Shown: positions 45,036-59,255, counted from the stretch's first letter. The stretch is 64,000 nucleotides of DNA from Kiritimatiellia bacterium (GCA_040768005.1 JAXGNL010000009.1:1471-65470), one strand, 5' to 3'. The notes: generated by a model not told the origin, from the sequence alone. Made by a program: numbers and translations.

Positions 45036-45250
45036 CTGCGGGATTCACGCCGGGACACGTGCGGCGGAAAACCCGGACGCGTCCCGGTTCTCCCCGGGCC
45101 GGGCGGGGGCTGTTGCAGACCAGAGGACTCTCTTTGAAAGCGGTCCGGCTTCAGGGGGGAACGTCACTCCCGTCGCCGGCCTCCGGCAATCCTCTGGCCC
45201 CATCCGGGCTTCCGCCCCGCGAGCACAATACAGGCGCCCCCGCCGGGCTT

Positions 45251-45307
45251 GTTCAACCCGGGATTGCAGCGAGGCTTCGCACGCAACTGATCCCTGCTTT
45301 GTTCAAC
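45251..45307 (-). repeat. candidate terminal attC (cassette 14)
   Basis: TTCAACCCGGGATTGCAGCGAGGCTTCGCACGCAACTGATCCCTGCTTTGTTCAAC. CAAC and GTTCAAC boxes, CCGGGAT/ATCCCTG pairing. Weaker than the other attC sites. Confidence 0.4.
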
Positions 45308-45311
45308 GCAT

Positions 45312-45713
45312 TCATTGTTTGTTCAACAGGATCCCGTCGGCAGTGTAGACGAGTATATTGGTTGCGGTAACTCTGTAGTGAAGATTCAAGGTCTTCGTCA
45401 CATAATCAAGCGCATCGCGCATTGTGATTCTCCGCAGATTCAGAGTGAGAGGAGGAAGATTGGAGCATGCCGGTAGAGAGCGATCTAATATGACTGGCCG
45501 GGGAACAGGCGGAGCGTTGATATCCATCAGGCCAATGGGCCTCATGTCGTCAGCTTCGGGCATCATGATTATTCCGGAAATCATGAATTCCAGCACATCC
45601 GTGGCATTCCCGTCACGGAATATGCATGTGGGGATAATCATGGTGTCCAGCCGGTCGCCGATTGTCCCAGATTGTGCATTTGTATATGCGAAAGCGGACG
45701 TCCATGCCGCCAA
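45312..45713 (-). CDS. hypothetical protein fragment with PVC-type IIP..F...DVL.F / LTLNL..I...DAL.Y repeat domain, probably 5'-truncated
   Basis: ...DRLDTMIIPTCIFRDGNATDVLEFM...LTLNLRRITMRDALDYVTKTLNLHYRVTATNILVYT. No signal peptide. The ORF starts at the edge of the intron remnant. Confidence 0.5.
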   Translation of the reverse strand: MAAWTSAFAYTNAQSGTIGDRLDTMIIPTCIFRDGNATDVLEFMISGIIMMPEADDMRPIGLMDINAPPVPRPVILDRSLPACSNLPPLTLNLRRITMRDALDYVTKTLNLHYRVTATNILVYTADGILLNKQ

Positions 45714-45723
45714 GAACAGAAAT

Positions 45724-46165
45724 GCGATATGAAGGCCGGGTCACGGGGCGAGGTGGCACAACACACGGAAGCCCTTGATCTAGTGGACAAGGAAAATCGC
45801 GCGGTGGCGCAGCGGAAGTTCACGTTCTTATCTGGGGAGATTCCCAGGAGGAAATGCCTTGGGAAGTCCGTAGCGGCCATAGTAGCGCTGAAGCCCGTGT
45901 AAGCGGAGGGAGCGAAGGGCCGAACCGGTCGGCTGGCACTCGACCGCGGGATGGACATTGGAGCTGTTGACGCCCGATGGGGCCAGGTCTTCAATGAGTG
46001 CCGTTCCGGGGGAAGCATGGAGTGCCTGGGGCGGGGTCTTCGGATTCAGCCGTGCGGTTGGGGTTCATCCCTGATCGTCTGACCGGAACCGCCGGATGCG
46101 GAGCCGCATGTCCGGTGGTGTGGGAGTTGGGGCCGGCTCATTAGGGCCGGCTCCGGCGACCCGAT
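45724..46165 (+). mobile_element. group II intron remnant (ORF-less, 5'-truncated)
   Basis: GGCCGGGTCACGGGG..GGTGGCACAACACACGGAAGCCC...GTTCACGTTCTTATCTGGGGAGAT...CATAGTAGC aligns with 48023-48190 of the full intron. The 3' end CCCGAT|TCGGC parallels CCTCGAT|TCGCA of the full copy. Confidence 0.6.
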
Positions 46166-46178
46166 TCGGCGCCTTCAT

Positions 46179-46481
46179 CTACGCCATGGCAAAGGCTTGT
46201 ACTTCTTGCTCCAGCCGATCACCGAGCTTGTCTTGTTCCTGTTCCAGGTCAAAATGCGCCTGTAGGTTCAGCCAGAACTGCGGCGAGATGCCGAAATACC
46301 GGCCAAGCCGCAGGGCGGTATCCGCAGTCACGCTACGGGTGCCATGCACGATCTCATTGATTCGCCGTGGCGGGACGCTGATGTCGCGCGACAGGCGATA
46401 CTGGGAAATACCCATGGGGGCCAGAAATTCCTCCATGAGAATCTCGCCGGGATGGACGGGGGGCATTTTGTTGGTTCTCAT
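46179..46481 (-). CDS. higA: HigA antitoxin (XRE HTH)
   Basis: ATG 46481: MRTNKMPPVHPGEILMEEFLAPMGISQYRLSRDISVPPRRINEIVHGTRSVTADTALRLGRYFGISPQFWLNLQ. Confidence 0.9.
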   Translation of the reverse strand: MRTNKMPPVHPGEILMEEFLAPMGISQYRLSRDISVPPRRINEIVHGTRSVTADTALRLGRYFGISPQFWLNLQAHFDLEQEQDKLGDRLEQEVQAFAMA

Positions 46482-46491
46482 GTCTTTTCTC

Positions 46492-46771
46492 CTAATGATA
46501 ATCCACAATCTCAACATCATGCGCGGCCTTCTCTCCATCGAAAGCAAATGCGCCATTGGTCATTGATCCGAATGCTATGCTGTCCCGCTCGGTTGCCGGC
46601 CAGAGCTTCCAGCCGGTTCCCAGGCGGTACCCGCAGAGAGATCAAATCCGGCGCCGCATCAATCATCCAGAGTTTCCGCAAGGCCGTCCGCTGAATGTCA
46701 TGGGGGAGCTTTCGCACAACCTCCCGCCGGAATATCTTTTCAGCCTCCGGGCTTCTGAATGACTTGATCAT
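46492..46771 (-). pseudogene. higB: HigB toxin (RelE/ParE superfamily), last 10 codons in another frame as read
   Basis: MIKSFRSPEAEKIFRRE...LRVPPGNRLEALAGNRAGQHSIRINDQWRICFRWREG then TGA. The expected ending AHDVEIVDYH-TAG is in the +1 frame and finishes just before the higA RBS. Confidence 0.8.
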
Positions 46772-46828
46772 GGGCAGAACATAACGCGCCGCGGTAATAT
46801 CGTCAAGCGTTACTATTCAGTTTCTTTC

Positions 46829-46893
46829 GGTGAACGTCAGCGTTCTCCGGACGGCGCACTTTGTGCGACGTACGGAGCAACGCCTTGTTCGCC
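46829..46893 (-). repeat. attC (cassette 12)
   Basis: GGTGAACGTCAGCGTTCTCCGGACGGCGCACTTTGTGCGACGTACGGAGCAACGCCTTGTTCGCC. Confidence 0.85.
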
Positions 46894-46897
46894 GACT

Positions 46898-47239
46898 TTA
46901 TTCATATGATGTGAATAGCGCTTGGATCTGCCCTTCGCCGTTGTATACCACGTCTAGGGGGCAGTTCGTATCCTTTAGGATATGATATTGAATCATCCTT
47001 TCATCTTCTTTGAGCGAGTAACTATGTCCCCATAAGGATTGGGAGGGGGATATAGGCTTACTGTTATAGCTCCATATCATTCCCTCAAGCTCGGTCTGCG
47101 TTTGAGCCTTCATCCACCGGGTTTCATTCATAAGGCAGAAGGCATAATGTCCGCTATCAGTCTTAAATAGCCATAAGCACAATGCGACAGAGATGCCGAC
47201 TATCGCCAATAGGGTATATTTAATAATCGGCGCTTTCAT
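46898..47239 (-). CDS. cassette ORF, membrane-anchored protein of unknown function
   Basis: 113 aa. MKAPIIKYTLLAIVGISVALCLWLF anchor. Fills the cassette between attC 12 and attC 11. Confidence 0.6.
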   Translation of the reverse strand: MKAPIIKYTLLAIVGISVALCLWLFKTDSGHYAFCLMNETRWMKAQTQTELEGMIWSYNSKPISPSQSLWGHSYSLKEDERMIQYHILKDTNCPLDVVYNGEGQIQALFTSYE

Positions 47240-47246
47240 TTCTTAG

Positions 47247-47311
47247 TTCCAACGTCAGCGTTCTCCGGACGGCGCACCTTGTGCGACGTACGGAGCAACG
47301 CCTTGTTGGGA
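47247..47311 (-). repeat. attC (cassette 11)
   Basis: TTCCAACGTCAGCGTTCTCCGGACGGCGCACCTTGTGCGACGTACGGAGCAACGCCTTGTTGGGA. The core differs from attC 12 at one position. Confidence 0.85.
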
Positions 47312-47776
47312 TTCTTTTCTTTCATAAAGGAATTGGATGCGATGCGATTCAATATCGTCAGCCAATGTAAACCACTCACCGATGGGGAGTGGTAGCTCGG
47401 TTTCGGTTGAAAATGAAGTTAACACGGGTTGCATCAGGACCAGTTCTCCAATAGTGTAGGGAACCCAGTCCGATAGTTTATGACAGTCAATCTTAAGTAT
47501 GCACCGCACGCTCATTTCAGCTTCTTCAATCACATCAACCGAAATATAATAACCTAGTCCGGTGCGCTCGAATTTAGTCGGACGCCCATCGTTTTCGTAT
47601 TCAGTGGGGTACTCGAGAAAGAAATCATATGGGCGTTCGCCCGTCTTTCCGTTGATGGGAACGGTAAAAACCAAGTTAGTTGTTTCGGGGAATATGACAC
47701 TAAGTTTGTCGGCGCCAAAGGCCGTTAGCGAAATAAGGGCTGTAGTGAAAAGGGCAACGTAATATCTTGTAGTCAT
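47255..47776 (-). CDS. cassette ORF, secreted protein of unknown function
   Basis: 173 aa. Signal peptide MTTRYYVALFTTALISLTAFGA. The 3' end runs into attC 11. Confidence 0.6.
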   Translation of the reverse strand: MTTRYYVALFTTALISLTAFGADKLSVIFPETTNLVFTVPINGKTGERPYDFFLEYPTEYENDGRPTKFERTGLGYYISVDVIEEAEMSVRCILKIDCHKLSDWVPYTIGELVLMQPVLTSFSTETELPLPIGEWFTLADDIESHRIQFLYERKESQQGVAPYVAQGAPSGER

Positions 47777-47790
47777 AGTTCTTCTCTCTT

Positions 47791-47844
47791 AATCACGGGT
47801 CAGGGGACCCGACACCTTGTGGCGGGTACCCTGGACCCGCTTGT
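47791..47844 (-). repeat. attC (cassette 10), interrupted by group II intron
   Basis: AATCACGGGTCAGGGGACCCGACACCTTGTGGCGGGTACCCTGGACCCGCTTGT, completed by TCGCA at 49645-49649. This gives GCTTGTTCGCA, as in the other attC right boxes. The left box is degenerate (CAC instead of AAC). Confidence 0.7.
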
Positions 47845-49644
47845 GTACGCCCAGCATGGGCGTGAAGCGTATGGGGTTGAAGTCCCCTGTACATGGAATC
47901 AACCTACCGAAAGGAAGGGAAAAGTACGAGCCAAAAGCAAGGGCGGTCGGGTAACCGGCGGTCTGGAGGAAGCTGGCGGCGAAGTCACGGGCCGATGAAC
48001 AAGAATTGCATAGCAGGCCGAGTGGGCCGGGTGAGTGGGCACAAGACCACGAAACCCGCTGGTTCAGCCCATACGGTAAATGCGGCGGCCGCGGGACGGA
48101 CGTTCACGCTCTTATCTGGGGAGATCCCGTCCCGACCTCTCAAGAGTCGGGACCGGGAAGTCAGCCGAGGGCATAGTAGCCCAACGCCGGAGGCAATGCT
48201 CCGGACATGGTGAAGGCCCGAACATCGGAACCGGGGAGGACGCCCGTCGCTCCCGCCGCCTTGATGAACCCGAATGGGGGAGAGCGCGGCGGCAACACGG
48301 CGGCCCCGTCTGCCCCGCAACCCACCGACCTGCTCGAACGGGTCCTGGATCGCGGCAACCTCAACCGGGCCTGGCGCCGGGTCAAAGCCAACGGCGGCGC
48401 ACCCGGCATCGACGGCATGACCGTCGAAGCCTTCCCGGAATGGGCGCGCGTGAACTGGGCTCCGATCCGGCAGGCGATCCTGACGGGAACCTACCGCCCT
48501 TCGCCGGTGCGGCGGGTGGAGATTCCCAAGGCCTCTGGAGGCAAACGCCCGCTGGGCATCCCGACCGTCACGGACCGGGTGATCCAGCAGGGCATTCTCC
48601 AGGTGCTCGGCCCGATGTGGGACCCCGGATTCTCGGAGTCCAGCTTCGGGTTCCGTCCCGGACGCAACGCCCACGGAGCTGTCAAGCAGGTCCAGGGGCT
48701 GATCCGCACCGGCCGCCGCTGGGCGGTCGATATCGACCTGCGGAAGTTCTTCGACACCGTGGACCACCGGATCGTCATGAGCCGGTTGGCCCGCAAGATC
48801 GAAGGCCAGCCGCTGTTGAGGCTGATCGGCCGCTACCTGCGGGCGGGCGTCATGATCGACGGACACATCGAACCCACGCGGGAGGGCGTGCCCCAGGGCG
48901 GGCCGCTCTCGCCCCTGCTGGCCAACATCGTTCTGGACGACCTCGACCGGATGCTGGATCAACGCGGTCATGCGTTCGCGCGGTACGCGGACGACTTCGT
49001 GATCCTGGTCCGGAGCGAACGGGCGGCCCAACGCGTGATGGCCGGCGTCTGCACCTTTCTGGAACGCAGGCTCAAGCTCCGCATCCATACCGGCAAAAGC
49101 CGCATCGTGCGCGGTTCGCAACTCGATTACCTCGGGTTCTGCTTCGCACGCGGCCGCATCCGGCTCACCCACGAGGCCCTGCTGAACTTCAAGCGGGAAC
49201 TCCGGTGGTGGACCGGGCGGCACTGGTTGAAGTCGATGGACGTGCGCCTTGCCAAGCTGCGGTCCTACGTGCAGGGGTGGATGAACTACTACGGGCTCTC
49301 CGGCGTCTACCGCGACTGGCCGGGTCTGGACGACTGGCTGCGGCGGCGGATTCGGATGTGCTACTGGGTGATGTGGAAACGTCCCCGGCCCCGCATCCGC
49401 AACCTGCGCGCCCTCGGCGTCCCGATCCGCCAGGCGGTCGGCCTCGGCCGCAGCAGTCTCGGATCGTGGAAGTGCGCCCGACTGCTTGGGTTCGCGATGT
49501 CAAAGAGCTGGCTGGAAAAGCAGGGTCTCATCTGCCTCGCAGACGACTGGTGAGCGGCGCTGGTACTGGGTCCGGCGAACGCCGGTGAATCTGCAACGCG
49601 TACGGTGGCAGGGAGGAGCTAATCACTCCCTTACCCACCTCGAT
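47845..49644 (+). mobile_element. group II intron, class C attC-targeting type (1800 nt)
   Basis: Starts GTACG directly after an attC stem-loop ending in TTGT. Ends ...CCTCGAT before TCGCA. Encodes an RT/maturase without an endonuclease domain. Orientation is antisense to the cassettes. Confidence 0.8.
48207..49553 (+). CDS. group II intron reverse transcriptase/maturase
   Basis: RVEIPKASGGKRPLGIPTVTDRVIQQ, FGFRPGRNAHGAV, DIDLRKFFDTVDH, GVPQGGPLSPLLANIVL, ARYADDFVILV, maturase RSYVQGWMNYYG. No HNH/En domain. The start could instead be ATG 48264. Confidence 0.9.
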   Translation: MVKARTSEPGRTPVAPAALMNPNGGERGGNTAAPSAPQPTDLLERVLDRGNLNRAWRRVKANGGAPGIDGMTVEAFPEWARVNWAPIRQAILTGTYRPSPVRRVEIPKASGGKRPLGIPTVTDRVIQQGILQVLGPMWDPGFSESSFGFRPGRNAHGAVKQVQGLIRTGRRWAVDIDLRKFFDTVDHRIVMSRLARKIEGQPLLRLIGRYLRAGVMIDGHIEPTREGVPQGGPLSPLLANIVLDDLDRMLDQRGHAFARYADDFVILVRSERAAQRVMAGVCTFLERRLKLRIHTGKSRIVRGSQLDYLGFCFARGRIRLTHEALLNFKRELRWWTGRHWLKSMDVRLAKLRSYVQGWMNYYGLSGVYRDWPGLDDWLRRRIRMCYWVMWKRPRPRIRNLRALGVPIRQAVGLGRSSLGSWKCARLLGFAMSKSWLEKQGLICLADDW

Positions 49645-49748
49645 TCGCATTATTATTTTGGCTGTTCGGCTGTTCCATCGTTCCCTTGTCCGGGCTGAAA
49701 TCGCTTTGCTTCCTCACCATCCGCCGGCATCACTCGGAATCATTATTT

Positions 49749-49812
49749 TCAGAACGTCAGCGTTCTGGGACAGCGCACTTTGTGCGCTGTACCCAGCAAC
49801 GCCGTGTTCTGT
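49749..49812 (-). repeat. attC (cassette 9)
   Basis: TCAGAACGTCAGCGTTCTGGGACAGCGCACTTTGTGCGCTGTACCCAGCAACGCCGTGTTCTGT. Confidence 0.85.
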
Positions 49813-50242
49813 GTCATTGTTTTATGATCCTCATCAGTTCTTCTGGGCCAAACCGCTCCCGCATGAGGTGGATAATTCCAAAGCGCCTGGCAGAATCCAT
49901 TCGGAGGGATAACCCCCAGCCCCTTTATCTGTTTTTGTCGGGGGGCCAACATCGTTTCAAAGTGACGCTGGAAATCGGCGTATGCAGGCAATATCGGCTT
50001 CTGCTCTGAAGTGTTTTAAAGAACTCAAGTTCCGCAAGCACGTCAGGCCTGTGTAGATGGAAGCCGAGAACACAATGGAGTCCTCGTAGCGGTTCGCATT
50101 TGAGGGTGTAATACGTGTTTGACCTTTTTGAGCGCGTAGCCATCAAAAAGGTCTTCCAGTTCCAGATTGCTTATCCGCCAAGGAATGAACTTTAGCGGGG
50201 CGGGTAAGTTGAAATCCTGATGTTAAGTCCATTATCTCTTTC
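49813..50242 (-). pseudogene. cassette 9 coding remnant, fragmented over three frames
   Basis: Pieces read on the minus strand: MDLTSGFQLTRPAKVH..., KFIPWRISNLELEDLFDGYALKKVKHVLHPQ, LRGLHCVLGFHLHRPDVLAELEFFKTLQ, KPILPAYADFQRHFETMLAPRQKQIKGLGVIPPNGFCQALWNY, IHLMRERFGPEELMRIIKQ-stop just before the attC. Confidence 0.4.
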
Positions 50243-50301
50243 ACAGAACGTCAGTGGTGAGGGCGCGAGTTTACGAGCGTACTTCCACCACCTTGTTGGG
50301 G
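50243..50301 (-). repeat. attC (cassette 8)
   Basis: ACAGAACGTCAGTGGTGAGGGCGCGAGTTTACGAGCGTACTTCCACCACCTTGTTGGGG. Near-identical to attC 1. Confidence 0.85.
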
Positions 50302-50304
50302 CTG

Positions 50305-50547
50305 TTATTCGGTTTCATCTTTGAATTCTTTGCACCATTTGGCGGCGTAATAGGCGCTAATAGGCAGGATCACCAAGAAGTGGATTGCGGCAATCAGTCC
50401 TTTCCAGAACTGTGGCGCCGTTCCGGGCAGTAACTCGGCCGGCGAGATGGTGCTGCAGCCAAAACAGCAGCATGGCCAGATAGAGAACAGCTGCCCGACA
50501 ATACGCCAGCCGCCAGCTCAAGCTATTTTCAATTTCTGAATATTCAT
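50305..50547 (-). pseudogene. cassette 8 ORF, small membrane protein with in-frame TGA at codon 10
   Basis: ATG 50547: MNIQKLKIA-TGA-AGGWRIVGQLFSIWPCCCFGCSTISPAELLPGTAPQFWKGLIAAIHFLVILPISAYYAAKWCKEFKDETE-TAA. The stop lies 3 nt before attC 8. The TGA is at 50518-50520. Confidence 0.5.
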
Positions 50548-50557
50548 TTTCTCGTGG

Positions 50558-50616
50558 CCCCAACGTCAGCGTCAGACGCGCCACTGTGGCGCGTATCCAG
50601 CAGCGCATTGTTGTGC
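50558..50616 (-). repeat. attC (cassette 7)
   Basis: CCCCAACGTCAGCGTCAGACGCGCCACTGTGGCGCGTATCCAGCAGCGCATTGTTGTGC. Related to attC 2. Confidence 0.85.
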
Positions 50617-50624
50617 CTTTTGTA

Positions 50625-51251
50625 TTATTCATGCACGGGGATATTGTCTGATACGAAGTGAAGAATTCGACCTTTTTCGCGAATATATCTTCCAATTCTT
50701 TCCAAAATGCGCTTTGGGCCGAGCGGACTTGTCGTTAGGGTCCTTTAATCTCGCAAAAGAACCAATCTGAAAGATCTGGTTTTAGTAAACAAATAAATCC
50801 GGGGTCCTCTGTAGCCATGGGCCTTCTTGGCAAACTCCACATTCGATCAAACAAAGGCGAAGAAACGCACTGATGGAAGATTGACGCTTTACGAGGGTGT
50901 CGCTCATTGGCGTTTTAATGTCGTGTATTTTTCGACCAGACTCAAATACCCTCGCTCATGCCACCATACATGGCCGCGGATGCTTCATAAAAGTGGTGAT
51001 GGCGTTGATTAAGGAATATTTCAAGGTCCCGCCGCCAGTATCTTAGAAATAAGCATGGGGTCATGAGAAATATTGAAGTCTTTGGAGTATTTCACCTGGA
51101 GCGATACCGCGCGTGTCTGCCGTTTATTTGTAACCAAGAAGTCGATACCCGTGTCCTTAGAGGGTATCCATACAGATAAATCGCGGAAATGTGCTTCAAT
51201 ATATGAGCCGACTAAGTACTCGCCAGCATGAACGGTAAATAGTGTCTTCAT
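50625..51251 (-). pseudogene. cassette 7 ORF, PD-(D/E)XK nuclease-like protein, fragmented as read
   Basis: MKTLFTVHAGEYLVGSYIEAHFRDLSVWIPSKDTGIDFLVTNKRQTRAVSLQVKYS has a D...(S/E)xQVK arrangement. It continues in shifted frames (WRRDLEIFLNQRHHHFYEASAAMYGGMSEG / VFESGRKIHDIKTPMSDTLVKRQ... / IGRYIREKGRILHFVSDNIPVHE-TAA). The first and last pieces are in the same frame. Confidence 0.45.
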
Positions 51252-51264
51252 AATTGTCTTTCTC

Positions 51265-51378
51265 GGTGAACGTCAGGGTTCAGGCTCGACCCACGGCTGT
51301 ACGGTGTAGGTGTGTAGCGAGCGGAAGGGTGTGCAGTGCGGCAGCTTGTGGGTCGTAGTCTGGAACCCCTTGTTCGAC
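51265..51378 (-). repeat. attC (cassette 6), long form (114 nt)
   Basis: GGTGAACGTCAGGGTTCAGGCTCGACCCACGGCTG...CAGCTTGTGGGTCGTAGTCTGGAACCCCTTGTTCGAC. Confidence 0.75.
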
Positions 51379-51563
51379 GATTTTTCATCCTCAAAATGCG
51401 AAAAATGGCCTGAAAATGGCCCAAAATGGGCTGTAGAGGCTATTTTGGGCACTATTTTCATGTTTTCGGGCCGTCGCGGAGGCTTGTAGCCGTCCGCTTG
51501 ACGATTTCTCCTCAATATTGGCCTGCTGTCGCCCATAGCGCCATCATTTTCATCTACTTCTTT

Positions 51564-51641
51564 GTCGAACGCCCACCGTGACCCTCGTTTCACGCCGCGT
51601 CCGCGCGGTGTGAAACGTAGCGGTCCACGGTGTTGTTCGCA
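51564..51641 (-). repeat. attC (cassette 5)
   Basis: GTCGAACGCCCACCGTGACCCTCGTTTCACGCCGCGTCCGCGCGGTGTGAAACGTAGCGGTCCACGGTGTTGTTCGCA. Confidence 0.8.
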
Positions 51642-51644
51642 CAG

Positions 51645-52412
51645 CTACTCCTGCTTCGCCAGTCCGTCCAGGCCCGCCAGAAAAGGCGACTTCACGATCT
51701 GCACGACAACAGGAGCGGTGACGGCGACAACTGCGTCGAGCGAGTAGCGAAATGAGACCTTCTGCTTGAACGTTTCCGCCTTGTCGTATCCCTTGTCCAT
51801 CTCTCCTATGGTCTCCAACTGCTTGAGCGATCCCTTATTGTATGTCATGAGGGGTTTGAGGTCTTTGGACAGCAGGACGAAATCCATTGGCATAAGCACG
51901 CTGGCGAATTGCGCCCCAGCAAACATCGTTGTGAGGGAGGGGCGTGGATCATTGACGGCCAGCACGAGCAGCATATCTGCTGCTTTAAACTGATCCAACC
52001 CCGCTCGCACAGTCTGACCGGACAGAAGTGCTGTCGTATCCAGCTTGATGCTTCCACCAATCGCCTCGACCTGTGCAACAATGCTCGCAACGATCAGCTG
52101 ACTGATTGAGTTCGTCGGAACCACAGGTCTGTAGGACAACCACTCCGTGAGATTCGTTCTGGCGTAGTCGGTCCCCATCTTTGGGTTCAGGTATTCCTTT
52201 GGCTCACCATCAACAATCGAGAAACTCTGGTAGTTGATGACGAGTACCCCCACCGATCTCGGTTGGTGCAGTTTCCCGAAATCAGTGGCCTGCCATTCTG
52301 CCTTCTCTGGTGCCTCGTCGGTGGCGACTTTCACCTTTGCCTCATCCGCAAGCCCTAGACTAGCCACCGCTAACACACCACACGCCCAAACCCATGCTGC
52401 CTTTGTCCTCAT
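51645..52412 (-). CDS. cassette 5 ORF, secreted protein of unknown function
   Basis: Intact ORF of about 255 aa. MRTKAAWVWACGVLAVASLGLA signal peptide. No recognisable domain. Confidence 0.65.
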   Translation of the reverse strand: MRTKAAWVWACGVLAVASLGLADEAKVKVATDEAPEKAEWQATDFGKLHQPRSVGVLVINYQSFSIVDGEPKEYLNPKMGTDYARTNLTEWLSYRPVVPTNSISQLIVASIVAQVEAIGGSIKLDTTALLSGQTVRAGLDQFKAADMLLVLAVNDPRPSLTTMFAGAQFASVLMPMDFVLLSKDLKPLMTYNKGSLKQLETIGEMDKGYDKAETFKQKVSFRYSLDAVVAVTAPVVVQIVKSPFLAGLDGLAKQE

Positions 52413-52432
52413 CTTCTCTGCTCCTTTCTCCA

Positions 52433-52493
52433 TGCGAACGTCCGGCCTCTGCGGCGACGCGATAGCGACGTACGCAGCAGGCCGTTGTTGGCC
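52433..52493 (-). repeat. attC (cassette 4)
   Basis: TGCGAACGTCCGGCCTCTGCGGCGACGCGATAGCGACGTACGCAGCAGGCCGTTGTTGGCC. Confidence 0.8.
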
Positions 52494-53534
52494 TCATCTC
52501 TGTTTTCCTTCATGCCACGGTGGAGTTCGAGGCAAGCCAAGCGCTTCGCGCTCTGTGTCATCGAGGACACGGCACGTCAGCGGGTCGCCCCAACCATCGA
52601 GCGCTATCGTTCGATCTGGTGCTTCAGTCGCTCTACGTGCTCGGTCGCGGTCAAAGGGCTCTCGCGCCTCTGTGCCCCGAGCCGTTGGGCGTGAACGTTC
52701 GTCAAGATAGCTGAAGGCTAGATATTCTGGTCCCACTCCGGTCTTGATATGCATCCATTCGTTCAGGGGGTACTCTCGGCGAGGGCCGGGTTCAGGCATT
52801 CCGAGTGTTGGCAGATACAACGAGATTCCAGCAAATAGATTCAGACACACACCGATCACAACGCCAGTCCATAGGAGGCGCTGGGGCCTCTTCAAGTCCG
52901 CGAATGAGAACAGGCGTAGCCCCATCCATAGCCAGAGCCCAACCAACAAGCCGCCGAAGTTCATCCCCACATTGCTACGTGTAAATGCGAATGCGGTGTT
53001 GACCGTGATTTGGGTGAACCCCGGGAGGCATGCACCTTCGAGCATGCGCTCGTAGAGATCGACGGCACGGGGCACAACTGCGATAGCGACCACAACAAGA
53101 ACAATGGTCAGTAGCGAATGTCCTGCCAGCGCAATGGCCGACATATAATTCGGGGTGGCTTTAGGGTGGGATGGAGCAGGAGTCTCATCCAGAGGAGACG
53201 GCCCAAATCGATTCGCACCGGCATTGCCACGAAAGAACCCAAGCTCGATGAATAGCCACAACCAACCGATGACGGGGATAAGCGAGATAAGCAAGAACCA
53301 AGCGGAATGGTTACGGTCATGCGCTCTTTTCACCCAGAGCGGCAGTTGAAACCAAAGCAGCGCAATGCTGAAGGCAGCAGACCACCCGGTGATGAGAAGA
53401 GGCGGACCATAAAGTACGGCAAGAACGGCAAATGGGATGACGGTCGCGAAGAACAAGGGCGCTACCCCTTTGTTCCAGAACTGGAAGCGACTCATCCGCC
53501 CCGAATACGAAGTCAGCGCCTGAACTATCGTCAT
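52494..53534 (-). CDS. cassette 4 ORF, DUF805-domain membrane protein fused to extra TM and C-terminal regions
   Basis: MTIVQALTSYSGRMSRFQFW...LWVKRAHDRNHSAWFLLISLIPVIGWLWLFIELGFFRGNAGANRFGP is the DUF805 pattern. Four or five further TM helices follow, then a charged tail. Confidence 0.7.
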   Translation of the reverse strand: MTIVQALTSYSGRMSRFQFWNKGVAPLFFATVIPFAVLAVLYGPPLLITGWSAAFSIALLWFQLPLWVKRAHDRNHSAWFLLISLIPVIGWLWLFIELGFFRGNAGANRFGPSPLDETPAPSHPKATPNYMSAIALAGHSLLTIVLVVVAIAVVPRAVDLYERMLEGACLPGFTQITVNTAFAFTRSNVGMNFGGLLVGLWLWMGLRLFSFADLKRPQRLLWTGVVIGVCLNLFAGISLYLPTLGMPEPGPRREYPLNEWMHIKTGVGPEYLAFSYLDERSRPTARGTEAREPFDRDRARRATEAPDRTIALDGWGDPLTCRVLDDTEREALGLPRTPPWHEGKQR

Positions 53535-53555
53535 CTCTTTTCTCCTTCTGCTGGT

Positions 53556-53620
53556 GACCAACGTCAGGGCTCACGCTCAGCGCACGTTAGTGCGCTGTAG
53601 TGTGCAGCCCATGGTTCGCA
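53556..53620 (-). repeat. attC (cassette 3)
   Basis: GACCAACGTCAGGGCTCACGCTCAGCGCACGTTAGTGCGCTGTAGTGTGCAGCCCATGGTTCGCA. Confidence 0.8.
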
Positions 53621-53712
53621 TCCTTCTCTTTATGGGTCAGTAGAAACCTTCCAGTATTTCTGTGTAACTAATATTAGTGTGTATGAATTGATGGCTGGAG
53701 CGTCAGGCATCT

Positions 53713-54583
53713 CTACCATGCGTCCCGTATATGGTAGTATTTTTTTATACCACTCGGCACCATATCAGTGTAAACATTAACAGGGGGTGTAGCCTGAATG
53801 CCATTTGCAAGAGTTGTCCATCCATCCCACCCAGCAGGCAAATTTGTAGAATGTTTTATTTCGTATGTGTGATTTGCTGCGCTTTCCCATTGTATAACAG
53901 GATGTCCGCTTGCAGATTCTATTGAAGTTAAGTACGCCCTATCATCTGCGTCAGTTATATTAATAACGAACACCTTTTGCGTAAACAGCCCGCTCTGATC
54001 TGCAGACTGCGCGCGAATACTGTAAGTGTTTTTTTGCTCATAATCAAATGACGCCGTCGCTAGCAGGTTACTGCCGCTTATGCTGAAGGACCCGTTGTCT
54101 CCGCTCCCAGTTCCGGCAACCAGTGTGTAGGTGAATGTATTGGCGAAATCTGGGTCTTGGGTACTTAAGGAGCCAACCGTCGTGCCTACTGCCAGATTCT
54201 CAATCACGTTTGTACTGGACAGCAGGATGTTGGTCGGGGTCTCGTTCGTGTTGAGAACATTGATCGCAAACACTTTCTGGGTGGACAGGCCGCCCTGATC
54301 GGCAGACTGGACTCGGATGCTGTAGTTGCTCTTGACCTCGTAGTTGAATATGGCCGCCGTCAACAGATTGCTCCCGCTGATTGTGAACGATCCGTTGTCT
54401 CCACTGCCCGTCCCGGCAACCAGTGTGTAGGTGAATGTATTCCCCAGAACCTCATATTCTGCACCTTGAGCGTTTGTCCGGACACAGCCCTCACTTCGGC
54501 AGTGCGTTTCTTGAAAGTGTCAAACCCCGCCTGGGTTGCGGATATTGTGACCAAGAAGAGCCCTACTGCAACGATCGCCTCAT
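53713..54583 (-). pseudogene. cassette 3 ORF, secreted cadherin-like repeat protein, 5' end in other frames as read
   Basis: Repeats FxYE..xxYSIRVQSADQGGLxTQKVFxINVxxxNExP occur twice in ORF 53713-54363. Upstream, AAGGAG-ATG (54583) MRR, then the signal-like IVAVGLFLVTISATQA and EYEVLGNTFTYTLVAGTGSGDNGSFTISGSNLL lie in two other frames. Confidence 0.6.
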
Positions 54584-54602
54584 CTTTCGTTCTCCTTTCG
54601 CT

Positions 54603-54661
54603 GCCTAACGTCAGCGTTTGGGACGCGCCACTTGTGGCGTACCAGCAGCGCATTGTTCGCT
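54603..54661 (-). repeat. attC (cassette 2)
   Basis: GCCTAACGTCAGCGTTTGGGACGCGCCACTTGTGGCGTACCAGCAGCGCATTGTTCGCT. In cassette orientation the R' box is the canonical GTTAGGC. Confidence 0.85.
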
Positions 54662-55526
54662 GCTCTATTTCTGCCATGTCTTTTTCATGTTCGCGATCAC
54701 GCAAGGTGTCACGGTTCTTTGTAATGAACTCGGCATCCACAGGATTTTGAATCGGCCTCATTTCTGCGCTTTTGCCAAGATATAAATTCTGCTCGTCCAG
54801 CAACTTGCAGGACGTTGTCAAGATTCTCGTCGGATAATCGGGAATCCTAGCAGCGATTTTTTGTACTTCGCTTGCAGCTTCAATAGTAGTTATTTTCCAA
54901 TACGGTAAATGCAACATAGTTCTTCACGAAGCGTATGGTGGGGCTTCAAAATATCGCCAATAGAATTAAGCAGCGCACGCGCTGCTTCAATTGTCCATAG
55001 TGATTTCTTTTCCAGAATGCCTCGTCGTACACCTCGCCATCCCCCGTTCCGTCATCCGGTTCCTCGTAGGTATCCACATCTTTGAGAAGTGGAGGGCCTG
55101 TGGCCACCTGACTCGATCATATTGACCTGGACGGCGATTATCGGAATAGAGTTGCTGGAGAGTTGTATAACGTTGAAGAACCGACGTGTGATGCACTCGG
55201 CCACGAGAACTGCATAGTGCTGCCGTTGCGGCCACCGTCGCCGTTGTCCCAGTATTCAATCGTACGGGTGATGTGTGATTCATCGTTTCGCTGAAAGCAT
55301 AATCTCGACCTCATATTACTGAATCGTCTTCGGGATTTTTATGAGGACATCCAGTCGTCCACTGACGACTGGATACGTTCCTTTGATACCGACTCCAGAT
55401 CGCCGAGTCCAAGGCAGGTCGGATTGTCGTATATTTGGTCACGTAGCCAGTATTCATACTAACTCCGGCATCAAGCGTATGCTCACAGCACTAGCAATAG
55501 TAATATCCATATTATCTCTTTCAAAA

Positions 55527-55584
55527 AGCGAACGTCAGTGGTGAGGGGCGAGTTTACGAGCGTACCTTCACCACCTTGTTCGGC
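55527..55584 (-). repeat. attC (cassette 1)
   Basis: AGCGAACGTCAGTGGTGAGGGGCGAGTTTACGAGCGTACCTTCACCACCTTGTTCGGC. Confidence 0.85.
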
Positions 55585-55598
55585 TTCATTCATTTTCT

Positions 55599-55790
55599 TC
55601 AAGATCCGGATCTGACGCTGTAGGCAATACCGAGTGTGCTGGTGACGATAAGGATTGGCCATGCCGATAGCCCGTCTTGGCGGCCAAGGTCAACGCAGGC
55701 AAGGCCGATGCCGATGAGTAAACCGCGAGAGCGAAATATCTGTTCTTTTGTGTGTTTGGCGATTCGCCGCGTTTTAATATTTTCATTCAT
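55599..55790 (-). CDS. cassette 1 ORF, small protein of unknown function
   Basis: 63 aa. MNENIKTRRIAKHTKEQIFRSRGLLIGIGLACVDL... The ATG lies 12 nt after the GTTCGGC junction box. The overlapping 66-aa ORF in another frame is less likely. Confidence 0.45.
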   Translation of the reverse strand: MNENIKTRRIAKHTKEQIFRSRGLLIGIGLACVDLGRQDGLSAWPILIVTSTLGIAYSVRSGS

Positions 55791-55800
55791 ATTATTTTAT

Positions 55801-55870
55801 GCCGAACAGCTCATCGGCCCAAGTCAGACTTGAAAAGCCGAAGTGGTTGATCGGAGAATAGCGAGAGGGC
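55801..55870 (-). other. attI-like region with first cassette junction
   Basis: Minus strand reads ...GAGCTGTTCGGCATAAAATAATATG. GTTCGGC (plus 55801-55807) has the same form as the attC boxes and marks the start of cassette 1. The extent of attI is not determinable from sequence. Confidence 0.4.
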
Positions 55871-56385
55871 TCTCAGGTGTCAATGGGCACGGCCGGTCAT
55901 GGGGCAATTGGTTCAGGGGAAGGCGATAAGCCCTGGGCGGCCTCTCCATCGACAAAGACTCCATCGCGCGGGACTTGGTGTTATGAGTTGCGCCTATTGG
56001 ACAATATGCGCAAGATGCAAACACCAACCCGGCGAGGGAAGACAGCGGATCTGAAAGGGCAGTTTCGTTTCCTACCAGCGCGTACTGGAGGCGGAAACGG
56101 GATTGGACCGGGCGGTTCGTAGCCGGTATCGCTGGGCGATCGGGGAGTATCTGGGCTCATTTGAAAGAGACGAAGCAGCGGGCTTCGTTGGCGACGGCGA
56201 AGGCGTATTTCGACGGGGGCGCGGGCAACGAGATGGTGCGGGAAGCCGTTCGGTGGTTCTTCATAGCGGAAGAGAGAACCAGAACCCCTGCCTCCATGAA
56301 GCGCGATGGCCTGGCTGGAAACCTGAAGGATCGAAGAAGGCAAGAAGGCCGAAGCGGCTGATGTGGCCGGGCGGCAACGGAGATT

Positions 56386-57369
56386 GTGCCGGAGCAGATG
56401 GATCGGGGAAAGGATGGATGGGAACGGCATCTGGTGGATCAGTTGCGGATCAAGCATTACCAATGGCGGACGGAACAGACCTATCGGGAACTGGGCTTGG
56501 AAGTTTGCGGATGGCTGGGAAAGAAGCAACTGGAGGAGGCGACCGGGGAGGATTTGAAGCAATATATGACGCATCTGGCGGCCGAAAAGAACGTGGCGGC
56601 CAGCACCCAACGGCAGGCCTTGAACGCCCTGGTTTTCTTCTTCCGTGAAGTGCTGGGGCGGGAGCCTGGGGATTTGACGGGGTTCCAGGCTTCACGGCGT
56701 CCGCCCAGAATCCCAACGGTGCTGACATCGGCGGAGTGCCTCCGGCTGTTTGACCAACTGGCGGGGACGACGAAACTGATGGCGCAACTGATGTATGGGG
56801 CCGGATTGCGGCTGATGGAACTGCTTCGGCTGCGGATCATGGACGTTGATCTGGAGCGGGGAATCGTAACGGTTCGCTCGGGAAAGGGAGGCAAGGATCG
56901 GGTTACGGTCCTGCCGGAATCGCTAAAGGGACCCTTGGCTCAGCATCTGGAACGGTTGCGGAAGCTGTTCGAGGAGGATCGTGCGGAAGGCGCCGCCGGG
57001 ACATGGCTACCCCCGCCAGTGGAACACAAGATTCCCAATGCCGGGAAGACTTGGGCTTGGCAATGGCTGTTTCCTTCCCGTCAGATGGCCATTGACCCCC
57101 GTTCAGGGATTCGCCGGCGCCACCATGTGCAGGATTCGGCATTCCAGACGGCGATCCGCAGGGGGGCGGAGGATGCGAAGATCGCGAAGCGGGTTACTCC
57201 GCATACGCTCCGCCACAGTTTCGCGACGCATCTATTGCAGGCGGGGCACGACATCCGTACGGTCCAGGAGTTGCTGGGCCATGCGGCCGTGGAGACGACG
57301 ATGATCTATACCCATGTGCTGAACAAACCGGGGGTGACCGTTCGCAGTCCCTTGGATGCGGGGAGATAA
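56386..57369 (+). CDS. intI: integron integrase
   Basis: 327 aa. LRIKHYQWRTEQTY, AASTQRQALNALVFFF, GLRLMELLRLRIMDVD, the IntI-specific insert EHKIPNAGKTWAWQWLFPS, HTLRHSFATHLL, ELLGHAAVETTMIYTHV. The same frame is open upstream to 56161 except for one TGA at 56359. Confidence 0.85.
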   Translation: MPEQMDRGKDGWERHLVDQLRIKHYQWRTEQTYRELGLEVCGWLGKKQLEEATGEDLKQYMTHLAAEKNVAASTQRQALNALVFFFREVLGREPGDLTGFQASRRPPRIPTVLTSAECLRLFDQLAGTTKLMAQLMYGAGLRLMELLRLRIMDVDLERGIVTVRSGKGGKDRVTVLPESLKGPLAQHLERLRKLFEEDRAEGAAGTWLPPPVEHKIPNAGKTWAWQWLFPSRQMAIDPRSGIRRRHHVQDSAFQTAIRRGAEDAKIAKRVTPHTLRHSFATHLLQAGHDIRTVQELLGHAAVETTMIYTHVLNKPGVTVRSPLDAGR

Positions 57370-57798
57370 GTGTCCGACCTGAAACGGGGCGACAAGACCG
57401 ATGCGCTTGTCGTCCGCTACGAGTCCCGGGACGGGGCCCAGCGCCTGTGGATCAACCAGATCCTGCGGACGATAAACAGCGTAGCCTTGGCCGATGCGGT
57501 CGAGATGGGAGATGAGGTGAGCGGGCGGTTTGGGAGATTGTTTGGCTGAGACCGTTTGATCTGCGGACCGGCGCAAAATATTTCAATCGCCACAGTCGTT
57601 TTCGGGGAATTCGCATGGCGAAAGCGGCCATTTTAGCCGTTCAGCGGCCTCTGTTTTATGGCCGGATCCTTCCGTGTATGACATCTATTTACAGTCAGAT
57701 ATCTGCCTGTACGCATTAGCACTGTGCATTAGCACTGAGAAAATTTATTCCAGAGATAGACTGTTAATGCGCCCGTCAATATTGGCTGAAATAAAAAA

Positions 57799-57892
57799 TG
57801 GCGGAGAGAGAGGGATTCGAACCCTCGGTACCGGTTGTTACCAGTACGACGGTTTAGCAAACCGTTGCTTTCGGCCACTCAGCCATCTCTCC
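57799..57892 (-). tRNA. tRNA-Ser (GCT)
   Basis: Reverse complement GGAGAGATGGCTGAGTGGCCGAAAGCAACGGTTTGCTAAACCGT...GAGGGTTCGAATCCCTCTCTCTCCGCCA. Long variable arm, anticodon loop TTGCTAA, CCA encoded. Confidence 0.9.
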
Positions 57893-57960
57893 GTACAGGG
57901 TGGGGGTAAGGTAGGGGATGGAGGCGGATAGGTCAAACGGGAATTCCGGAGAGGAGGGCA

Positions 57961-58159
57961 GGGGCGCATCTGCGATTCGGTGCACCCTTGGGGTCATATT
58001 GAGCGTAGGCGCGTAGCGCCGGAGTCGAAATATCTGAGCACAATCCCGATGGCCAGCCTTCGGGACCAACCCGAGATCCCTCGACTCCGCTCGGGATGAC
58101 AGCCATATAGGACTACAAGGCCTTATTGCACAGCATGCACCGAATCGCAGATGCGCCCC
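57961..58159. repeat. 199-bp unit closed by a perfect 24-bp inverted repeat
   Basis: GGGGCGCATCTGCGATTCGGTGCA (57961-57984) and TGCACCGAATCGCAGATGCGCCCC (58136-58159) are exact reverse complements, 151 bp apart. Confidence 0.8.
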
Positions 58160-58286
58160 AGGGGGCAGGCGGGAAGGGGGAGAGGTCGGAGGTCAGGGTT
58201 CAGGGTTCGGGGTTCAGGGGACAGCCGAGGTTTGATGTCCGAGGTCTTGCCACCTGCCAACAAGCAACGACCAACGGCGGGCGGGG

Positions 58287-59255
58287 TCAGCCTTCGCCGG
58301 TGATTTCGCGCAGGACGTCTTCGAGGGTGATGAGGCCGATGACTTCGTAGCGGTCGTCGGTGACGAGGAAGAGGGGGAGGCGGGTGACGCGCATGCGGGG
58401 CAGGAGGTGGTCTACGGGGAGGTAGGAAGCGACGAGCTGGGGGGGGCGCATGTAATCGGCGGCGGTCTTGGCGTCGGAGGCCGCGTCGGAGAGGATGTCG
58501 AAGACGTGCACGACGCCGACGAAGGCCTGCTGGGCTGGATCGTACACGGGCAGGCGGTTGAATTCGCGGCGGCGTGCGAGGTCGAGGATTTCCGTGGCGG
58601 TGGCGGTGACGGGGACGAAGGCCATCTGGTCGCGGGGGGTCATGAGGGCGCCGCAGGTCTTGTGGGTGAGGTCGAAGACGCCGTGGATCATTTGGGATTC
58701 GTGGGAGGTGAGGACGCCGGAGCGGGCGCCTTCGCGGGCGAGATGCAGGAGTTCTTCGCGGCTGACGAGCATTTTGCCTTCGACCTGGCGGCCCGCGCCG
58801 CGGGGCATGAGCCCGCGCAGGATGGCGTTGACGAGGAAGGTGACGGGGAAGAGGAGCCAGGCGGCGGTTTTCAGCAGGCCGGCGAGGGGCAGGACGCGGC
58901 GGGCGGGGGCGGCCTGGAAGAAGGCCTTGGGGATGTATTCGCAGCCGACGAGGATGACGGTGACGAGCAGGACGCCGGCGGCGGCGGCGCCGAGGGGGCC
59001 GTAGAGGCGGTGGCCGATGGCGGCGGCGAGGACGGAGCTGACGACGTGCAGGAGGTTGGTGGCGATGAGGGTGGTGCCCAGCAGGCGGTCGGGGTGGGCC
59101 AGGAAGTGGCGGATGGTCTGGGCGCCGGGGACCTGGCGGCGGACGAGATGCTGCAGCCGCAGGCGGTTGATGGCGATGATGCCGGTCTCCATGCCGGCGA
59201 AGAAGGCGGCGCCCAGCAGGCAGGCCAGCAGCAGGATGAGCTGGGAGGCGATCAC
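58287..59255 (-). CDS. CNNM/DUF21-CBS domain membrane protein
   Basis: 322 aa. FFAGMETGIIAINRLRLQHL (DUF21) and a CBS pair. Lacks the CorC_HlyC tail. Confidence 0.8.
   Translation of the reverse strand: MIASQLILLLACLLGAAFFAGMETGIIAINRLRLQHLVRRQVPGAQTIRHFLAHPDRLLGTTLIATNLLHVVSSVLAAAIGHRLYGPLGAAAAGVLLVTVILVGCEYIPKAFFQAAPARRVLPLAGLLKTAAWLLFPVTFLVNAILRGLMPRGAGRQVEGKMLVSREELLHLAREGARSGVLTSHESQMIHGVFDLTHKTCGALMTPRDQMAFVPVTATATEILDLARRREFNRLPVYDPAQQAFVGVVHVFDILSDAASDAKTAADYMRPPQLVASYLPVDHLLPRMRVTRLPLFLVTDDRYEVIGLITLEDVLREITGEG

Follow-up and report, generated by a model that had tools for sequence, protein, structure and literature searches.

A cassette-exchanging chromosomal integron, very probably sedentary, in a Kiritimatiellia lineage, with apparent decay of the copy in one assembly

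The window analysed here is a stretch of 64,000 nucleotides (nt) from the assembly of a Kiritimatiellia bacterium (GCA_040768005.1, JAXGNL010000009.1:1471-65470), in which an earlier note, made from the sequence alone, had proposed a chromosomal integron between 45,251 and 57,369. At one end of this block lies a plus-strand gene for a tyrosine recombinase, intI, and upstream of it approximately 14 cassettes (45257-55806) run along the minus strand from an attI crossover point to a degenerate terminal attC site. Two group II introns interrupt the array. Across 45-58 kb the guanine-plus-cytosine (GC) content falls from ~0.67 to 0.49-0.60 in the profile of the window, a dip that the note had also described; the cassettes themselves stand at 0.46-0.58 against ~0.67 in the host, and GC-rich chromosome returns below ~45250. 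The LeuRS, LemA and HigA proteins flanking or within the locus have identical counterparts under the name 'Kiritimatiellia bacterium' in NCBI metagenome-assembled genomes (MAGs), which agrees with the non-proteobacterial host suggested before. By searching for exact matches to the LemA and CNNM proteins on either side of the locus, we recovered 14 conspecific contigs from other samples, referred to below as sister strains. All of them place intI next to the same CNNM genes and the end of the array next to the same LemA gene.

The recombinase is an integron integrase (IntI), as the note had concluded from its R/H-R-Y boxes and additional insert. The protein encoded at 56386-57369 (+) scores 383.1 bits against the NCBIfam model TIGR02249 'integron integrase', for which the cut-off is 265. 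This is in contrast to its scores with the XerC/XerD models (146-148 bits against cut-offs of 330-335) and with the Xer models including XerA (146-174 bits against cut-offs of 220-335). Pfam recognises Phage_int_SAM_4 and Phage_integrase domains. Residues 22-324 align to VchIntIA (PDB 2A3V, E 3.6e-71) without a break through the IntI-specific insert near patch III, which matches VchIntIA residues ~198-240, and the catalytic residues are kept: R (GAGLRLME), K (GKGGKDR), HxxR (HTLRHSFATHLL), H (LLGH) and Y (MIYTH). The nearest IntI in the GTDB species representatives comes from a Planctomycetaceae MAG and is 56% identical; further ones from many phyla are 43-52% identical.

Eleven clear attC sites lie upstream of intI, all on the minus strand, with xxxxAAC at the 5′ end and GTTxxxx at the 3′ end. 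Their lengths of 58-114 nt are those given in the note, which had counted 12 sites; the twelfth is split by an intron and has lost its R′ box, and a degenerate terminal site (45248-45310) has to be added. A further attC, whose R″ box was hit by the intron without an open reading frame (ORF) behind higA, survives as a degenerate and mostly lost remainder. A naive scan for AAC...GTT combined with fold energy was swamped by the GC-rich background, and for this reason we used a covariance model, built from nine sites and run unfiltered over both strands of the 64 kb. The model recovered its nine sites, two held-out long sites (E 4.8e-6 and 0.024) and the intron-split site; it gave no match with E < 1 outside the span of the integron in the 64 kb, the best (E 3.5) falling at 56605-56638, inside intI. 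Consistent with this, the octamer CTGACGTT occurs nine times in the window, all nine being minus-strand copies that mark the 3′ end of an attC site in the array. RNAalifold returned 14 consensus pairs, and at nine of these both bases have changed in a compensatory way. When the bottom strands were folded as DNA, an L-stem with one or two single-base bulges in its 3′ arm appeared in 9 of the 11 clear sites, which agrees with the unpaired bases noted earlier, and seven of these nine also form a terminal R stem and an asymmetric internal loop. Fold z-scores range from -3 to -7 in seven sites. At six junctions the GTTxxxx with which a cassette opens is exactly or almost exactly complementary to the xxxxAAC in the attC of that same cassette, as excised circles predict.

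Comparison with the sister strains locates attI and reveals exchange of cassettes at it. Contigs covering the intI side match the window at ~99% down to 55811 (55793 in L087 and L092) and then diverge. In L090, L091 and L093, blastn joins window position 55811 directly to 53562, and L087 and L092 diverge at the same point. At the level of single bases all share ...GACTTGGGCCGATGA(A/G)..CTG/TT (the slash before TT, as in other sites below, marks the point of exchange or insertion), after which there are three different continuations: cassette 1 in the window; the DUF805 cassette directly in L090, L091 and L093, joined exactly at the R′ G53562/TT of attC A3; and in L087 and L092 an unrelated cassette that ends in an attC of the same type. 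Three cassettes of the window (2,245 bp) are missing from the L090-type strains, with recombination points at both edges, and this difference bears the mark of attI x attC insertion or excision carried out by IntI. Given that strains 99% identical carry different first cassettes at one G/TT, cassettes have turned over within the lineage, and such strain-resolved gain or loss exactly at attI is unusually direct evidence of activity. On the distal side the array is common to all contigs as far as they reach (L082 the furthest, to window position 47980); the attI-distal half is the older part and is conserved among strains.

Recombination by IntI follows a mechanism established for integrons generally, and at this locus it would proceed as follows. 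The intI gene, on the plus strand, diverges from attI (crossover G55807/TT), which is followed on the minus strand by ~14 presumably promoterless cassettes, each closed by an attC whose bottom strand would fold into an imperfect hairpin recognised by IntI. The integrase would act on a circular cassette by binding its attC, folded from the bottom strand, and recombining it with double-stranded attI at G/TT, so that new cassettes would enter beside the promoter upstream of attI; recombination between two attC sites would excise cassettes. The older distal half has been colonised by two group IIC-attC introns at the TTGT/T of R″ and, in sister strains, by an IS110-family element at R′.

We are confident that an uncultured Kiritimatiellia bacterium, a member of the Planctomycetes-Verrucomicrobia-Chlamydiae (PVC) group, has a sedentary chromosomal integron here, that the integron has been invaded by attC-specific parasites, and that this copy looks frozen or decaying. 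Several points weigh against this interpretation. The minimum-free-energy folds of attC A2, A7 and A8 are non-canonical. At the remaining junctions R′ and R″ are not complementary, which means that some boundaries may be decayed or missed. The covariance model is specific to this array, with a single weak match across the 1 Mb of 80 further IntI loci and no match in a class 1 integron; being specific to one attC type, it is no substitute for the general attC model of IntegronFinder. The candidate promoter Pc is proposed from its likeness to a sigma-70 consensus, which may not be that of a host with uncharacterised promoters. Recombination at the locus is argued from comparison of sequences, and the damage described below comes from one assembly, where indels and a scrambled intron domain V could be artefacts.

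Could the locus be something other than an integron, such as a Xer- or phage-type tyrosine recombinase beside REP-like palindromes or terminators? A high-GC background does yield many chance AAC...GTT hairpins, and the covariance model was trained on the array itself, but we regard this explanation as scarcely credible: the recombinase passes the integron-integrase cut-off, carries the IntI insert and fails the Xer cut-offs; the repeats are strand-specific, confined to the upstream side of intI and placed after cassette ORFs; the differences between strains comprise whole units with breaks exactly at G/TT; and the repeats serve, at TTGT/T, as targets of attC-specific group IIC introns. The earlier note had named three outcomes that would undo its integron reading, namely an absence of attC sites, a recombinase of Xer or phage type without the extra domain, and a block conserved and syntenic in all relatives. 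Instead, attC sites are supported by the array-built model, by fold and covariation and by the strain junctions, the recombinase has the scores and the insert just described, and three different cassettes stand at attI beside 99%-identical flanks. Since all three outcomes fail, the integron reading is supported. A mobile integron, or one on a genomic island at tRNA-Ser, would fit the position of the tRNA gene, which adjoins the integron as had been noted and whose 3′ end faces intI at a distance of 430 bp, and the low-GC block does span from the tRNA to the array end. However, no repeat of the tRNA region of ≥11 nt is present at the far array end, which is why we dropped the island hypothesis and attach no significance to the tRNA. 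Transposition or conjugation genes were not seen among the ORFs and called genes flanking the block, the CNNM and LemA neighbours are the same in all strain contigs, and the attCs share a single sequence type, as do those of sedentary arrays. Mobility is, in our view, quite improbable. The constant chromosomal location and the homogeneous attCs are features of sedentary integrons, although ~14 cassettes are fewer than in classical superintegrons.

The sedentary integron proposed here shares with the Vibrio cholerae superintegron (VchIntIA, VCR sites) and with non-proteobacterial integrons the IntI insert, a divergent attI and the G/TT crossover. It also resembles sedentary chromosomal integrons in its one-strand array with a single attC type, its toxin-antitoxin cassette and mostly orphan cargo, and in variation that is concentrated attI-proximally at a chromosomal location fixed among strains. 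It differs in its Kiritimatiellia host, its small number of cassettes, a cassette GC content 10-20 points below that of the host, and a lineage IntI that has an extra N-terminal domain and is distant from the nearest GTDB-representative IntI. The locus is otherwise an ordinary integron of a well-known kind, for which cassette turnover in the lineage is demonstrated. No description of integrons in Kiritimatiellia was found in the literature searched, and the finding extends integron biology to this PVC-group member of anaerobic digesters and wastewater. The coordinates of all features are collected in Table 1.

Table 1. Features of the integron and its surroundings, in window coordinates
Feature	Position	Strand	Description and evidence
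tRNA-Ser(GCT)	57799-57892	-	430 bp beyond intI stop
intI, integron integrase	56386-57369	+	327-aa ORF of canonical length, GTG start; TIGR02249, 2A3V alignment
Decayed remnant of intI N-terminal extension	56041-56385	+	Intact in sister strains as four-helix domain and linker
Candidate promoter Pc	55855-55883	-	TTGACA-17-TATTCT, 10/12 consensus matches; ~50 nt upstream of attI, towards array
attI crossover	55805-55807	-	G55807/TT on cassette strand; alignment of window, L087, L090-L093; blastn joins
Cassette 1	55533-55806	-	274 bp; 63-aa ORF 55599-55790
attC A1	55527-55584	-	Covariance model, fold; closes cassette 1
Cassette 2	54609-55532	-	924 bp; without convincing gene
attC A2	54603-54661	-	Covariance model; closes cassette 2
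Cassette 3	53562-54608	-	1047 bp; cadherin-domain repeat protein 53713-54363 or longer
attC A3	53556-53620	-	Covariance model; closes cassette 3; R′ G53562/TT is far edge of three cassettes absent from L090, L091, L093
Cassette 4	52439-53561	-	1123 bp; DUF805 membrane protein 52494-53561
attC A4	52433-52493	-	Covariance model, fold; closes cassette 4
Cassette 5	51570-52438	-	869 bp; 262-aa orphan protein, signal-peptide-like N-terminus
attC A5	51564-51641	-	78 nt; covariance model, fold; closes cassette 5
Cassette 6	51271-51569	-	299 bp; 87-aa ORF, without family match
attC A6	51265-51378	-	114 nt; covariance model, fold; closes cassette 6
Cassette 7	50564-51270	-	707 bp; 76-aa fragment, weak likeness to Mrr/DUF4365 nucleases
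attC A7	50558-50617	-	Covariance model; closes cassette 7
Cassette 8	50249-50563	-	315 bp; 68-aa ORF, without significant match
attC A8	50243-50302	-	Covariance model; closes cassette 8
Cassette 9	49755-50248	-	494 bp; 73- and 80-aa ORFs, without significant match
attC A9	49749-49812	-	Covariance model, fold; closes cassette 9
Cassette 10	49645-49754 and 47795-47844	-	~160 bp without intron; attC split by reverse transcriptase (RT) intron
Group IIC-attC intron, 1800 nt	47845-49644	+	RT/maturase ORF 48207-49553; TTGT 47841-47844, intron, T49645; Rfam RF02001, RF01998
attC remainder, split by RT intron	47787-47844	-	R′ GACGTTGG deleted; covariance model (47787-47846, E 0.11), fold
Cassette 11	47253-47794	-	542 bp; 173-aa protein 47255-47776, signal-peptide-like N-terminus
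attC A10	47247-47311	-	Covariance model, fold; closes cassette 11
Cassette 12	46835-47252	-	418 bp; 113-aa protein 46898-47239, N-terminal hydrophobic helix
attC A11	46829-46893	-	Covariance model, fold; closes cassette 12
Cassette 13	From 46834 down to ORF-less intron	-	~670 bp; HigB/HigA
HigB toxin and HigA antitoxin	46179-46771	-	HigB 46517-46771, PF05015 E 1.1e-15; HigA 46179-46481, TIGR02607 108 bits, cut-off 47.7
ORF-less group IIC-attC intron, 490 nt	45676-46165	+	TTGT 45672-45675, intron, T46166; Rfam RF02001, RF01998, RF00029
Cassette 14	45257 to ~45675	-	~400 bp; 108-aa protein 45312-45638, weak STN-like match
Terminal attC, degenerate	45248-45310	-	Weak covariance-model match E 1.6; weak fold z -1.05; closes last cassette

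Both introns of the window lie in an attC bottom strand at the R″ TTGT/T, opposite to the cassettes, as do eight other copies. This is the insertion rule of group IIC-attC introns, which target R″ at TTGT/T opposite to cassette transcription (PMC7923331, PMC3001079). The longer intron encodes an RT that matches TIGR04416 at 385 bits and has RVT_1 and GIIM domains with no endonuclease domain. Its closest plasmid relatives show ~52% identity and include the RT of an intron after catB3 in a class 1 integron (pIMP4_000369), in the array blaIMP-4-qacG2-aac(6')-Ib4-catB3-[intron]-qacEdelta1. The junctions of this intron and of the window intron are identical (...TTGT/GTACGCCCAGCATGGGC... and ...CCCGAT/T...). 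The eight further copies of the window intron family (RT P0061; L096-L103) all occupy bottom strands of attCs of the same type, in the arrangement TTGT/.../T. Head-to-tail tandems, in which an intron has inserted directly after another copy, occur in L097 (925-4091) and L102, with the junction ...CCCGAT/GTACGCC..., and this junction together with the published insertion rule defines the ends of both window introns. The 5′ end had first been read as TT/GTGTA by analogy with GUGYG; the tandem copies and restoration of the attC fix it as TTGT/GTACG.

The two introns differ in the state of their ribozymes. The RF00029 match of the ORF-less intron ends exactly at 46165 and reaches 38.8 bits (E 1e-4), just under the gathering score of 40 bits, and the intron forms canonical domains V and VI, as the intron of the class 1 integron does. 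The RT-bearing copy gives no match to RF00029, and the 5′ arm of its domain V (49575-49610) is scrambled relative to eight identical copies; its RT has 448 aa, against 455 aa in the other copies. With domain V scrambled, this copy is probably splicing-dead. From these comparisons the ribozyme of the RT copy appears dead and that of the ORF-less copy competent, and the ORF-less copy would need RT supplied in trans. Judged by identical spacing, the ORF-less intron is present in all six strain contigs that cover its place.

The R′ box of the attC split by the RT intron has itself been a target. It is intact (GACGTTGG) in L082 (13327-13390), and in L081 and L083 an IS110-family element of ~1.66 kb stands directly after GACGTT (L081:13329-14991). 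In the window there is an 8-nt deletion of exactly GACGTTGG at this point (47793-47796), possibly an excision scar of the insertion sequence (IS). L101 has the same order of IS110 element and then intron as L081 and L083. Among known parasites of attC sites, the class 1 integron introns S.ma.I2 and Kl.pn.I3 resemble those of the window in bottom-strand insertion at the R″ TTGT/T and in an RT/maturase that lacks an endonuclease; they differ in the divergence of the window RT noted above, in the specialisation of its family on this environmental attC type, and in the pairing, in the window, of a degenerate RT copy with a diverged ORF-less member that has intact domains V and VI. The IS1111-attC group of IS110-family insertion sequences, which Tetu and Holmes are said to have described in J Bacteriol in 2008, offers a likeness to the element of L081 and L083, in that a DEDD/IS110-family transposase element lies directly after the GACGTT of an attC R′; the element is absent from the window, and that of L081 and L083 is assigned at the level of the IS110 family. 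A single array has thereby accumulated layers of parasitism: attC-specific group IIC introns, one of them ORF-less, an IS110 element and a possible excision scar.

The 5′ part of intI in the window (56039-56508) looks damaged. In five sister contigs that hold the complete gene (L087 and L090-L093; for example L091:3685-5013, -), IntI is called at 442 aa, the extra 115 residues being an N-terminal extension. Relative to these five strains the window has lost the ATG, a 4-nt deletion in the N-terminal domain takes out an invariant Trp, single-nt indels lie at 56156, 56333 and 56368 within the extension, and substitutions cluster at the start of the domain. A pair of indels at 56491 and 56508 forms a local double frameshift that turns the conserved EWAWKFA of the core-binding domain into ELGLEVC. 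From 56508 to 60000 there are no indels between the window and the sister strains. In the five strains and in over 100 homologues IntI is intact, with a length of 420-500 aa; the indels are peculiar to the window. With the gene intact at 442 aa in the sisters and interrupted by indels here, the 327-aa ORF is the remnant of a 442-aa gene, and to judge from these changes the integrase gene in this assembly is probably impaired. The damage to intI, the scrambled intron domain V and one attC without R′ together make the integron in the window look frozen or decaying.

Alternatively, the integron may be fully functional in this strain, with a true gene of 442 aa and with the intI indels, the scrambled domain V and the 8-nt attC deletion all errors of assembly or consensus. 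The anomalies are confined to the integron, a strain-variable region that is hard to assemble and where contigs from other samples break; the intron occurs in many copies in these communities, with 131 blocks of the collection listing it; and the window has more attI-proximal cassettes than its sisters, as an active element would. Yet the loss of the ATG, the 4-nt deletion and the cluster of substitutions go beyond homopolymer slips, indels cease altogether past 56508, and intI is single-copy. The exact window IntI, tried with two start codons, is moreover absent from the protein collection, in which the proteins of its neighbours are present, and this fits annotation as a pseudogene. We consider a fully functional integron unlikely for these reasons, and we lean towards real decay of intI in the window as opposed to an artefact of assembly.

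The N-terminal extension, of which the window holds a remnant only, lies outside the earlier note and is the only possibly new element at the locus. A search with the 442-aa form returned more than 100 clusters of 420-500 aa (coverage 98-99%, identity 50-90%), several of them named integron integrase and coming from Kiritimatiellia, Victivallales and Syntrophales. Their alignment shows a conserved block, V-S-F-x-x-W...L...Y-L...L-K...R-A-S...A-L-R-W-F-F, followed by a variable linker and then canonical IntI. The domain has no Pfam, NCBIfam or PDB sequence match. AlphaFold2 predicts a four-helix bundle of ~80 aa (pLDDT 92.7, pTM 0.81) with a disordered linker at residues 82-119. A Foldseek search of this model against the PDB gave nothing significant, the top query-normalised TM-scores being those of the core-binding domains of XerA (0.57) and Cre/Tre (0.56), and hhalign aligned the domain to the IntI core-binding domain with a probability of 38.6% (E 3.2e-4). 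Our best guess, and a weak one, is that the predicted fold and these alignments reflect a diverged, perhaps ancient, duplicate of the core-binding domain.

A profile search for the domain among 1.84 billion representatives found at least 837 clusters at 50% identity, 366 of them at E ≤ 1e-10, and 6 of the 10 top-listed members scanned with Pfam run into Phage_int_SAM_4 approximately 120 residues in. It occurs in one of the 80 GTDB IntI loci, and its clade in MAGs of Kiritimatiellia, Verrucomicrobiota, Victivallales and Syntrophales. One 278-aa protein (P0207) has two tandem copies of the domain and lacks a recognisable integrase part. No description of a natural N-terminal extension of IntI was found in the literature searched. 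We tentatively suggest, as a doubtful possibility, that a large IntI clade carries an apparently undescribed N-terminal domain that may bind accessory attI sites or regulate synapsis. The resemblance is to lambda Int, since the IntI of the sister strains likewise has an extra N-terminal domain on a flexible linker before the core-binding and catalytic body; the IntI domain, however, is predicted to be an all-helical four-helix bundle, unlike the arm-binding fold, and a role in DNA binding would be an analogy. If the suggestion is true, integrons would include an arm-type, heteronomous recombinase architecture unlike that of all studied IntIs, and the window copy would be a natural knockout of the domain beside its own array. 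The domain could then alter attI recognition or regulation in a large group of environmental integrons.

The cassettes measure 274-1123 bp, which revises the earlier spacing of 100-1060 bp. Their cargo is a pool of small orphans and one HigBA pair, and beyond this pair the proteins look mainly secreted or membrane-associated. The 262-aa protein of cassette 5 has only three homologue clusters in 5.8 billion proteins, none of them annotated. Cassette 13 has the features of a type II toxin-antitoxin system, with a RelE-fold HigB adjoining a helix-turn-helix HigA, and the pair probably stabilises the array. The earlier note had found no known function among the larger cargo proteins, which is true of most of them and not of HigB/HigA, the DUF805 protein or the cadherin-like protein; it had also overlooked HigBA, the two introns and the damage in the 5′ part of intI. 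It had regarded the cargo as a likely home of uncharacterised or anti-phage systems, for which there is no positive evidence: no defence system was recognisable among 10 cargo proteins searched against the PADLOC families, with no matches at E ≤ 0.01.

Several smaller features of the cassettes were noted. The octamer CTGACGTT provides the TGA stop for two ORFs that read through their attC, those of the 173-aa (47255-47257) and 87-aa (51273-51275) proteins. The gene of the cadherin-domain protein (53713-54519, -) harbours a ~90-nt DNA repeat, with copies near 54440 and 54140; its ORF has 52 open codons upstream of the first possible start, and the protein may be a 5′-truncated piece of a larger adhesin. 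Within cassette 2 a 29-nt near-perfect palindrome, AATTGAAGCAGCGCGTGCGCTGCTTAATT, lies at 54963-54995 (-); lacking AAC/GTT boxes, it may represent either a terminator or what is left of some other site. The last-cassette protein (45312-45638, -) shows a weak likeness (E ~2e-3) to the STN/secretin N-terminal region of Amuc_1098-type pilus secretins and could be a captured gene fragment.

At the other end of the locus, a 59-aa ORF (57370-57549, +) abuts the intI stop, and a gene is called at the same position in the sister contigs that reach there. Beyond it, antisense to tRNA-Ser, the Rfam family 'Plastid-psbl-rps4' matches at 57802-57857 (+) with 58.7 bits, below its gathering score of 68, evidently as an artefact of the tRNA sequence.

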